Positions 30,274-33,002 of a DNA stretch of 38,184 nt are shown here, one piece after another (position 1 is the first letter of the stretch; each line of letters begins with the position of its first letter). The notes beneath the pieces were generated by a model, which saw nothing but the letters and a program-made list of their open reading frames with translations, was not told the DNA's origin and ran no database searches. This DNA comes from a virus (lineage: Duplodnaviria; Heunggongvirae; Uroviricota; Caudoviricetes): IMG/VR virus record IMGVR_UViG_2531839529_000007, one strand, 5' to 3'. The position numbers were made by a program, and so were the translations under genes.

Positions 30274-30924
30274 ATGCATCGTATAGACACGAAAACCGCG
30301 CAGAAGGATAAGTTCGGCGCGGGTAAGAACGGTTTTACCCGTGGTAATCCCCAGACTGGTACGCCTGCCACCGATCTGGATGATGACTACTTTGACATGT
30401 TGCAGGAGGAGCTTTGCAGCGTTGTGGAGGCATCCGGTGCCAGCCTGGAGAAGGGGCGGCATGACCAGTTGCTTACCGCACTTCGCGCACTGCTGTTAAG
30501 CCGCAATAATCCGTTTGGTGATATCAAATCGGACGGCACGGTACCAACGGCTCTCGAAAACCTTGGTTTGGGAGAAGCGGCGAAAAGGGATGTGGGTACA
30601 GGAGAAAATCAGATACCGGATATGTCAGCCTGGAAAAGAAATCCGAGTTCTAATCGCTGGAGAAAATTGCCTGATGGAACCATCATTCAAATGGGAATAT
30701 CAGCATCAGGGCCATTAGGCTCACCTGTAAATATCACCCTGCCGATATCTTTCAGCAATACCAATTATTGTGTTGTTGCATCGTACGATAATGCACGGTC
30801 AGGTGTGTCAACAATGGTTAGTTTTGCAGCATTACCTGTTTCACCATCGCAATTTTCCCTGATGTCATCTGTGACTGAGCAAGGAATAAATCCTTTTGCT
30901 TACTGGATTGCTTTTGGAGATTGA
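30274..30924 (+). CDS. Tail fibre protein (constant N-terminus plus currently expressed variable C-terminus)
   Basis: 216 aa; a 26-bp crossover site inside the gene (30551-30576) separates the constant part from the invertible variable part. Confidence 0.85.
30551..30576. other. Invertase crossover site (hix/gix-like), left
   Basis: CTCTCGAAAACC-TT-GGTTTGGGAGAA: imperfect 12+2+12 palindrome; its right half-site is identical to the reverse complement of the half-site at 32368-32379. Confidence 0.8.
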
Positions 30925-30927
30925 TAA

Positions 30928-31347
30928 ATGGACAGATACTTCTATTCACAAAAAGAAAATGGTTTTTTTACCGATTTAAATAAAGCACCTTCAGATGCTG
31001 TTGAGATAACCACGGATGAATGGCTATCACTACTGGATGGTCAGGATAATGGCATGAAAATAGTCAGCAATCAGGAGGGATATCCGGTTTTGACAGAGCA
31101 ACCACCTTTATCAAAAGAAAACCTTATTGCATTGGCAGAGTTGAAAAAAGGAAAACTTATTAATGAAGCCAACGAGCACATGAACAGCAGGCAATGGCCT
31201 GGTAAAGCGGCTATTGGTCGTCTGAAAGGTGAGGAACTGGCGCAATATAATTTGTGGCTGGATTATCTGGACGCACTGGAACTGGTTGATTCCTCCAGTG
31301 CGCCAGATATTGAATGGCCTACGCCTCCGGCAGTTCAGGCCAGATGA
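30928..31347 (+). CDS. Tail fibre assembly protein (currently expressed orientation)
   Basis: 139 aa directly after the tail fibre gene. Confidence 0.8.
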   Translation: MDRYFYSQKENGFFTDLNKAPSDAVEITTDEWLSLLDGQDNGMKIVSNQEGYPVLTEQPPLSKENLIALAELKKGKLINEANEHMNSRQWPGKAAIGRLKGEELAQYNLWLDYLDALELVDSSSAPDIEWPTPPAVQAR

Positions 31348-31921
31348 CATCCGGCGCGGTGCTGGTATCTGTTGCCGTCACCGCGTCAATGTAATCCAGC
31401 ACAGCGTTAAGTCGGGTGGTTTCTGCCTGCGTCAGCTTCCGTCCGGCCTGTAGTTTCAGTTGAATCAGACTAATGGAAGCCATTGCTGCATCAATAAGTG
31501 ACTGGCGCAGTGCTTCTGCCGCGTCTACTGCGGCATTATGCTGTGCCTCAGTATCTGTCACCCATTTCTCACCATCCCATTTATCGTATGGCGTTAACGG
31601 GGCGATAGTGGTTGTATTATCAGGGTAATCACCCGGAGCTGTGATTTCTTTTGATTCTCCTGTTTCGGTGCTAAAGACGATTTCACCGCGATGGTCTGGC
31701 ACATATTCCCATGAGTTAAAATCTGCAGATCGGCAGATTGCATAACCAGTTTTGTATGAGCCAGGAGCATCTAAACAGGAACATGCCGGAATGCCGACAC
31801 CCACAGCAAGATATTCAGTTGATGTGAAAATATATTCCCGTGTTTCACCATCATAGTTATAAACCGTAATATTTCCTGCCTGGGTGGCGATAAATTCGTT
31901 ATTTAATACAGCGTAATCCAT
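31319..31921 (-). CDS. Alternative tail fibre assembly protein (inverted orientation)
   Basis: 200 aa on the minus strand, TAATG-coupled to the alternative fibre C-terminal segment; converges on the plus-strand tfa. Confidence 0.8.
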   Translation of the reverse strand: MDYAVLNNEFIATQAGNITVYNYDGETREYIFTSTEYLAVGVGIPACSCLDAPGSYKTGYAICRSADFNSWEYVPDHRGEIVFSTETGESKEITAPGDYPDNTTTIAPLTPYDKWDGEKWVTDTEAQHNAAVDAAEALRQSLIDAAMASISLIQLKLQAGRKLTQAETTRLNAVLDYIDAVTATDTSTAPDVIWPELPEA

Positions 31922-32379
31922 TATGCAGCCCTCACGATATAATTAAAGGCAATGTTTCGAGGACGGTTTTCGTTTGCAGTTGGAACAACTCTGGAAGCAT
32001 CAAATGTTACTCGCTTTGCATAACCACCTTTAATTGAATCAGATGAAGCATCTCCGATGACGCTGGTTGTAAAAACGCCAGAATCAGAAGGATAGGTATT
32101 AAACCTGACATCTACTAATGCACCAATTATATTTCGAATGGCATCGCCCTGTGATGCAAGCAAGCTACGGTTAGTATCAATTCCTCTTCCGTCATCCCAG
32201 CCACGAATAAACTCACCACGTAAATCAGGTAATTTATTTGTCGGGTAAGCCTTTGCCAGTTCCGGGTATTCTTCAGCAGAAAAAGCCGCACCATTGCATT
32301 TCAGCCAGCCTGTTGGCGGAGTGGCTGAAGGCCACGGAACAGGGACACCAACAGGTAATGCAGAGCCTTCTCCCAAACC
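31921..32379 (-). CDS. Alternative tail fibre C-terminal segment (silent until inversion)
   Basis: Minus-strand frame begins at the crossover site with no ATG of its own (codons G-L-G-E shared with the constant region); inversion would yield ...[20 protein letters not shown]... Confidence 0.75.
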   Translation of the reverse strand, partial: GLGEGSALPVGVPVPWPSATPPTGWLKCNGAAFSAEEYPELAKAYPTNKLPDLRGEFIRGWDDGRGIDTNRSLLASQGDAIRNIIGALVDVRFNTYPSDSGVFTTSVIGDASSDSIKGGYAKRVTFDASRVVPTANENRPRNIAFNYIVRAA

Positions 32380-32393
32380 AACCTTTTAGAAAA
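32368..32393. other. Invertase crossover site (hix/gix-like), right
   Basis: TTCTCCCAAACC-AA-CCTTTTAGAAAA, inverted relative to the site at 30551-30576, about 55 bp upstream of pin. Confidence 0.8.
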
Positions 32394-32447
32394 TGCAGTT
32401 ATTCGGCTCAGATGGCATGATCCCGGATTTTTACAGGGTTATTTCTC

Positions 32448-33002
32448 ATGCTTATTGGCTATGTACGTGTGTCAACAAATGACCAGAACACAGATCTACA
32501 ACGTAATGCGCTGAACTGTGCAGGATGCGAGCTGATTTTTGAAGACAAGATAAGCGGTACAAAGTCCGAAAGGCCGGGACTGAAAAAACTGCTCAGGACA
32601 TTATCGGCAGGTGACACTCTGGTTGTCTGGAAACTGGATCGGCTGGGGCGCAGTATGCGGCATCTGGTCATTCTGGTTGAGGAGTTGCGCGAACGTGGCG
32701 TTAATTTTCGCAGCCTGACGGATGCTATTGATACCAGTACCCCAATGGGGCGCTTTTTCTTTCATGTGATGGGGGCCCTGGCTGAAATGGAACGAGAACT
32801 GATTGTTGAACGAACAAAAGCTGGACTGGAAGCTGCTCGCGCACAGGGACGAATTGGTGGACGTCGTCCCAAACTTACACCAGAACAATGGGCGCAGGCC
32901 GGACGATTAATTGCAGCAGGAATTCCTCGCCAGAAGGTAGCGATCATCTATGATGTTGGTGTATCGACACTGTATAAGATGTTTCCGGTCGGAGATAAAT
33001 GA
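32448..33002 (+). CDS. pin: Serine recombinase, DNA invertase (Pin/Gin/Hin family)
   Basis: 184 aa; N-terminal MLIGYVRVSTNDQNTDLQRNAL... with the catalytic serine; closely resembles e14 Pin. Confidence 0.92.
   Translation: MLIGYVRVSTNDQNTDLQRNALNCAGCELIFEDKISGTKSERPGLKKLLRTLSAGDTLVVWKLDRLGRSMRHLVILVEELRERGVNFRSLTDAIDTSTPMGRFFFHVMGALAEMERELIVERTKAGLEAARAQGRIGGRRPKLTPEQWAQAGRLIAAGIPRQKVAIIYDVGVSTLYKMFPVGDK

Follow-up and report, generated by a model that had tools for sequence, protein, structure and literature searches.

The 38,184-nucleotide (nt) DNA of IMG/VR record IMGVR_UViG_2531839529_000007 (here called the window, meaning the whole stretch that was analysed) is an Escherichia coli prophage adjoining proA and tRNA-Thr(CGT) (thrW). 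Our analysis of the window identifies, with high confidence, a DNA inversion switch of the same kind as the e14 P segment, located within the tail-fibre operon of this SfV-like prophage and served by an invertase of the Pin type (Din family, comprising Gin, Cin, Pin, and Hin). In particular, two inverted crossover sites bound a segment that holds two alternative fibre tips, each with its own chaperone, and the pin gene stands alongside. Four independent lines of evidence establish that exactly this inversion has happened in nature. The type of switch is already known, and the same alleles are present in both orientations in public genomes.

Organization of the invertible segment

The initial annotation had placed two 26-bp inverted sites sharing an identical half-site at the ends of the segment, and both are confirmed to the base (Table 1). 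Each site is an imperfect 12-2-12 dyad, with internal dyad symmetry at 9/12 positions in the distal site (site 1) and at 7/12 positions in the proximal site (site 2). The reverse complement of the proximal site, TTTTCTAAAAGG-TT-GGTTTGGGAGAA, agrees with the distal site at 21 of 26 positions, the inner half-site and the central TT (14 nt) being identical; the proximal site is inverted relative to the distal site, and the two present the same central TT when read in the same relative orientation, a common central dinucleotide in inverted 26-bp sites being a trait of the Din family. The shared 14-mer occurs twice in the 38-kb window, on opposite strands, and its two occurrences are the two sites; 0.32 matches with at most two mismatches would be expected by chance. 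With a half-site weight matrix derived from the annotated cix sites of P7, the gix sites of Mu, and the e14 sites of K-12, the distal site scores 30.1 bits and the proximal site 22.8 bits, compared with 10.6 bits for the next best 26-mer in the window and a maximum of 14.5 bits in 30 shuffles. The matrix contains the e14 left site, which has the sequence of the distal site, and the score of the distal site is therefore partly circular. A scan of the window with the same matrix reveals no further or cryptic crossover sites of the kind that serve Min-type multi-inversion. The arrangement is a simple two-site one, neither a multi-site shufflon nor a chance repeat. The pin ATG is 68 nt downstream of the centre of the proximal site, and the corresponding distance in 59 related IMG/VR loci is 67-69 nt. 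A 22-nt partial repeat (30541-30562 and 31965-31986) was considered as an extra site and was rejected for having no site-like score.

Table 1. Features of the inversion switch and of its surroundings, by position in the window (aa, amino acids; ORF, open reading frame; IS, insertion sequence; RT, reverse transcriptase)
Feature	Position	Strand	Remarks
Distal site (site 1)	30551-30576	+	CTCTCGAAAACC-TT-GGTTTGGGAGAA; central dinucleotide 30563-30564
Proximal site (site 2)	32368-32393		+ strand reads TTCTCCCAAACC-AA-CCTTTTAGAAAA; central dinucleotide 32380-32381
Tail-fibre gene, 216 aa	30274-30924	+	Gp53-like_C tip
Constant part (Sc), residues 1-101	30274-30576	+	ends ...ALENLGLGE; near-invariant in relatives
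Expressed variable C-terminus (Sv)	30577-30924	+	Gp53-like_C; Pfam PF21882 E = 5e-13, residues 131-215
Chaperone of expressed tip, 139 aa	30928-31347	+	Pfam Caudo_TAP E = 2e-25
Chaperone of silent tip, 200 aa	31319-31921	-	Pfam Caudo_TAP E = 4e-32
Silent fibre C-terminus ORF (Sv')	31921-32376	-	Collar domain; Pfam PF07484 E = 1e-15; part inside the sites 31921-32367
pin, serine DNA invertase, 184 aa	32448-33002	+	Resolvase E = 9e-52, HTH_7 E = 2e-14; outside the invertible segment
Putative recombinational enhancer	32466-32533	+	gap-free alignment to P7 cin nt 19-86
Mu gp48 / YmfQ-type baseplate gene	29686-30270	+	
IS3-family element	~6647-10156		orfA 9787-10125 (-); orfB fragments 9335-9760 and 6672-7067 (-)
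Group II intron splitting the IS3-family element			RT/maturase ORF 7220-8743 (-); Rfam Intron_gpII 7130-7216 (-)

The distal site corresponds to codons 93-101 (ALENLGLGE) of the fibre ORF and, as had been claimed, lies where the constant and variable parts meet. Specifically, a protein alignment with K-12 StfP and three other relatives is near-invariant through E101 and unrelated afterwards, Sv departing from StfP and SfII after residue 101-117, and DNA identity to e14, SfII, and the E. coli strain FDAARGOS_1284 is 96-97% across the constant part and stops at 30577-30585. Sc lies outside the invertible segment apart from the inner half of the distal site. In-silico inversion of 30563-32381 fuses residues 1-101 to the Collar-domain end, giving an open protein of 249 aa, and the fusion is in frame, as had been predicted, with no disruption at the junction. 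The assignment of a chaperone to each tip likewise stands, since a Caudo_TAP domain is present in both chaperones and the 200-aa chaperone follows the fused fibre gene on the + strand after inversion. The two chaperone genes are convergent, with 3′ ends that overlap by 29 nt, and the ATG of the silent-tip chaperone overlaps the stop codon of Sv' (TAATG). The layout is that of the tail-fibre inversion type, with Sc outside, two tip-and-chaperone pairs inside in opposite orientations, and both fusions in frame.

The silent Sv' has no ATG, and an in-frame TAA in the outer half-site closes its upstream frame; the homologous K-12 frame (StfE) is open from an ATG. The earlier description of the silent copy as start-less holds in this K-12 sense, but a TTG at 32376, inside the proximal site, remains as a possible start for the silent frame. 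About 200 nt of the silent tip (31975-32175) have no match in K-12, JE86, CX07, or FDAARGOS_1284. For annotation, the lesson is that fibre fragments labelled "partial" or "hypothetical" beside pinE are silent halves of a switch and not products of decay.

The invertase said to adjoin the segment proves to be a close relative of K-12 PinE (96.2% identity). Pin residues 1-181 align to the Gin structures 3UJ3 and 4M6F (E = 8e-93, the value for 3UJ3 included), the N-terminal active-site segment MLIGYVRVSTNDQ, including Ser9, is identical in 4M6F, and the C-terminus matches structures of the Hin DNA-binding domain; at the DNA level, the gene is ~73% identical to cin and gin. The 5′ end of pin contains a putative recombinational enhancer, defined by alignment to a P7 cin enhancer that is itself annotated as putative. 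Two G-N13-C Fis-type cores (32469-32483 and 32518-32532) are present in it, and both are conserved in pin, pinE, cin, and gin. The first core is 96 bp from the centre of the proximal site, a spacing that fits the ~100 bp between the enhancer and one site in the Hin system (PMC3798978). Homology thus suggests, for the enhancer as for its interaction with Fis, a role like that in the related systems.

By analogy with Gin, Hin, and Cin, Pin dimers would bind both 26-bp sites, and on supercoiled DNA the sites would form a synaptic complex with the enhancer in the 5′ part of pin, to which Fis would be bound. The four strands would be cut at the central TT/AA dinucleotide, and rotation of half of the complex by 180 degrees, followed by religation, would leave the 1,817-bp segment inverted. 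In the present orientation, the constant part would be read into the Gp53-like tip to give the 216-aa fibre, followed by the 139-aa chaperone; in the inverted orientation, it would be read into the Collar-domain tip to give the 249-aa fibre, followed by the 200-aa chaperone. The promoter-proximal constant part would stay fixed in both orientations. If the analogy with Mu G and P1 C holds, the two tips would recognize different receptors during adsorption.

Both orientations in public genomes

Searches of 5,426 complete E. coli genomes returned 29 genomes colinear (>=80%) with the native query and 28 colinear with the in-silico inverted query. Two sibling pairs are especially clear. Across 5.9 kb, one exact inversion is the sole difference between CX07 and CX15; JE86-ST05 and JE86-ST02 likewise differ by one exact inversion and nothing else, and the JE86 pair carries exactly the proximal site of the window. 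The breakpoints of the sibling-pair inversions are confined to the shared TTGGTTTGGGAGAAG, and the comparative data place the breakpoint within 15-16 nt, the shared stretch being 15 nt. The switch region was found at >=99% identity in one piece in 0 of the 5,426 complete genomes, while matches to Pin-type sequences occur in roughly two of every three complete E. coli genomes.

The predicted 249-aa fusion is present verbatim as a public E. coli protein, with 31 contigs among the matches listed. Moreover, assembly GCA_017760085.1 contains the window as inverted in silico, with 0 mismatches across 24274-33002 (8.7 kb) and 1 mismatch in 12,750 nt. Its contig start falls, by arithmetic, ~8 nt from the end of the IS3-family element, which is what short-read assembly of the same defective prophage would be expected to give. 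Public genomes thus hold both orientations, including that of this exact element, and not the single orientation that would have spoken against a switch. A survey of IMG/VR gave a consistent picture: 59 of 65 related loci have exactly two sites, and the same cassette pairs occur in both states.

Inversion of the homologous P segment of K-12 has been shown by whole-genome sequencing and polymerase chain reaction (PCR) (PMC4272514), and by quantitative PCR at the same inverted repeat, TTGGTTTGGGAGAAGG (PMC12529663). The P segment is locked in pinE and pinE pinQ mutants of K-12 (PMC12529663).

Comparison with known systems and alternative explanations

The initial annotation had likened the mechanism to Mu G and the e14 P segment together; of the two, the P segment is the closest relative and Mu G is not, and the element is not e14. 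The window and the K-12 P segment share the gene order ymfQ-stfP-tfaP-tfaE-stfE'-pinE, an identical left crossover site, identical inner half-sites, and the 29-nt tfa overlap, and identities are high for Pin (96.2%), YmfQ (98.5%), and Tfa2 (89%, compared with TfaE). Identities are low for Stf (67%), Tfa1 (51.5%, compared with TfaP), and Stf' (72%), and the tips and one chaperone are therefore regarded as different alleles. The segment is 1,817 bp in length, compared with the 1,797 bp reported for K-12, and the proximal outer half-site differs at 3 positions and contains the in-frame TAA. e14 lies in icd, whereas the element here lies at proA-thrW with an SfV-type integrase and, unlike e14, keeps complete head and tail modules; pin is followed here by PD-T4-3 and other genes, and in e14 by mcrA. 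Despite its P region of the e14 type, the element cannot be equated with e14, because it is at proA/tRNA-Thr(CGT), has an SfV-like integrase, and has PD-T4-3 in place of mcrA. The e14 P region is thereby seen in what is likely its ancestral setting, namely a myovirus genome of the SfV type whose structural genes are complete.

The G segment of Mu (Gin) and the C segment of P1 and P7 (Cin) have the same layout, with Sc outside, Sv/U and Sv'/U' inside in opposite orientations, and the invertase alongside; they also share the 26-bp sites with the 12-2-12 consensus and an enhancer (putative here) located within the 5′ part of the invertase gene. The differences are of size and of core dinucleotide: the fibre has 216 or 249 aa here and 504 aa (1,515 nt) in Mu S, with an S gene of ~2.9 kb in P7; the segment spans 1.8 kb here, ~3 kb in G, and ~4 kb in C; and the core is TT here and TC in Mu. 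The Hin system of the Salmonella H segment belongs to the same invertase family, likewise has 26-bp sites, and has an enhancer bound by Fis at ~100 bp from one of them (suggested here by homology), but what Hin flips is a promoter for flagellin genes, not the alternative 3′ parts of a fibre gene. The P segment and Pin were reportedly described in 1985, and the same switch logic is textbook knowledge for Mu and P1. The mechanism is long known, and the locus carries little weight as a discovery; its value is that of a clean example reconstructed in full, with its exact inversion product present in a public assembly.

The Shigella phages SfV, SfII, SfI, and SfIV share the prophage backbone (97% from packaging through baseplate, ~98-99% from int through the early-left region) and integrate at thrW. 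SfII and SfV differ in having one fixed tip and one chaperone, without a partner site or invertase, and in that genes for O-antigen modification occupy the place taken here by pin and the defence cargo. An identical orphan copy of the distal site is present in the tail-fibre gene of SfII (positions 1755-1780 of that locus), and no partner site or invertase was found in the 5.7 kb examined downstream of it. Pin-family enzymes encoded by other prophages could act in trans on orphan sites of this kind. A sister prophage in FDAARGOS_1284 has 97% identity in the left flank and 99% in the right flank but different P cassettes, and identity breaks at window positions 30577 and 32375, within a few bases of the crossover sites; whole P cassettes therefore appear to have been exchanged as units. 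Pin-mediated exchange at the crossover sites might be the means by which P cassettes are swapped between phages. Phage vB_EcoM-689R6, with a 96% identical invertase, was set aside as a comparison because the record is incomplete and lacks an intact P segment.

An explanation that dispenses with the invertase, by RecA-dependent recombination between short inverted repeats or by chance repetition of a conserved coding motif, is exceedingly improbable. The distal site does overlap the conserved fibre motif LENLGLGE, and SfII has the same sequence with neither an invertase nor a partner site in the 5.7 kb examined downstream. Against this, the shared stretch is just 15 nt, much too short for RecA to act on efficiently; both sites are built on the 12-2-12 plan of the cix and gix sites; a Din-family invertase always stands 67-69 nt from the proximal site; and the K-12 P segment is locked when pinE, or pinE and pinQ, are mutated (PMC12529663). 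It is also very unlikely that the switch is a frozen relic that no longer inverts in this strain, with pin unexpressed or the outer half-site defective. The quality of the proximal outer half-site and the want of a promoter-like site upstream of pin, both detailed below, would favour such a relic, but this very proximal site is present in JE86-ST05 and JE86-ST02, which a single exact inversion sets apart, the opposite orientation is found in the assembly that matches the switch region with 0 mismatches, and Pin is full length and shares with Gin an identical N-terminal active-site segment, Ser9 included.

A further possibility, which we regard as quite unlikely, accepts an active switch and holds that it has been co-opted for host defence, a chimeric Stf masking outer-membrane receptors and blocking other phages. 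The precedent is that inversion of the homologous e14 P segment (producing StfE2) makes K-12 resistant to T2 (PMC12529663), and it is in keeping with this possibility that the prophage is defective yet has a switch that is intact and flips, and that the adjoining cargo is defence-related (PD-T4-3). However, translation of K-12 StfE2 starts at an ATG located between the proximal site and pin, and the corresponding frame here is closed by the TAA; the variable tips are not those of K-12 (identity 67% for Stf and 72% for Stf'); and two public assemblies show 0-1 differences in 12.7 kb, such that the deletion may be recent and retention of the switch need not reflect selection. The broader proposal that flipping is kept for host benefit through a surface or receptor-masking Stf variant, as part of one defence island with PD-T4-3 and the CapH/CapP-like genes, is likewise unlikely.

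Several results weigh against a Pin-type switch that is fully functional in this copy. Flipping in this particular isolate is something that we infer from identical and sibling elements. The outer half of the proximal site, CCTTTTAGAAAA (32382-32393), departs from the common e14 variant, CGTTTATGAAAA, at 3 positions, is a weaker match to the matrix than that variant (7.2 bits), and is carried by 0 of the 59 surveyed IMG/VR loci; this variant site nonetheless supports inversion in the JE86 pair and in GCA_017760085.1. A promoter and terminator scan of 29600-33200 gave counts no higher than those of shuffles, with no promoter of either the fibre operon or pin standing out above chance; the scan, which showed nothing promoter-like upstream of pin, was uninformative. 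Extra synonymous constraint in the enhancer is not significant either in a comparison of pin, cin, and gin (6/18 versus 30/108, p = 0.41) or as synonymous diversity among 67 unique pin genes (0.249 versus 0.315, p = 0.078), although both tests trend in the expected direction. Finally, no homologues of SfV cI, cro, the replication genes, Q, or the methylase are present in the window. Because cI, cro, replication, and Q homologues are absent, the prophage is very probably unable to grow alone; it is probably defective, producing no virions by itself, and both fibre expression and a host-range effect are doubtful in this copy.

The proposal of a host-range switch is accordingly upheld as to the inversion switch, but the host-range effect is latent at most. 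The switch is intact and, to judge from identical and sibling elements, active, but its host-range output can only appear if the late genes are expressed with outside help. The switch appears to keep flipping after the prophage lost its control region.

Prophage context and cargo

The integrase and early-left genes are 98.8% identical to those of SfV, and the region from packaging to baseplate is 97% identical to those of SfII, SfI, SfIV, and SfV. The SfV-like early region ends inside orf33 and is followed by the IS3-family element and then by a holin gene at 10212. The IS3-family element, itself split by a group II intron (Table 1), occupies the place of SfV cI, cro, the replication genes, Q, and the methylase, and it is not flanked by a 3-bp target duplication, in line with an adjacent deletion mediated by the IS. 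The RT at 7220-8743 was considered as a defence RT or retron and was rejected, since it scores above the cut-off of TIGR04416, has a GIIM domain, and has Intron_gpII directly downstream.

The gene directly after pin (33061-33885, - strand) encodes a GIY-YIG (LEM-3-like) protein with a full-length match (E = 8e-140) to the PADLOC model PD-T4-3, a single-gene anti-phage system model. The slot after pin is occupied by mcrA in K-12 e14, by O-antigen modification genes in SfII and SfV, and by dinI and an integrase in CX07, and it looks like a variable position for cargo or defence. Further along, an ImmA/IrrE metallopeptidase (34525-35058, - strand) and a helix-turn-helix protein (35062-35439, - strand) resemble the CapP/CapH regulator pair of defence systems, and they are followed by a divergent Bro-N protein (35746-36507) and by a trypsin-like S1 peptidase (37138-38184) that runs off the end of the window. 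The cargo block 34525-38184 is 100% identical in several E. coli strains, with FDAARGOS_1284 among the strains that share cargo.

Two other genes stand apart from the switch. The early-left region contains a PAPS-reductase-like protein (3190-4185, - strand; PHROG 424), which has a weak SspD-like PADLOC match, and an HNH endonuclease (12228-12677, + strand) is encoded just before the small terminase subunit, as is typical of HK97-like packaging modules.

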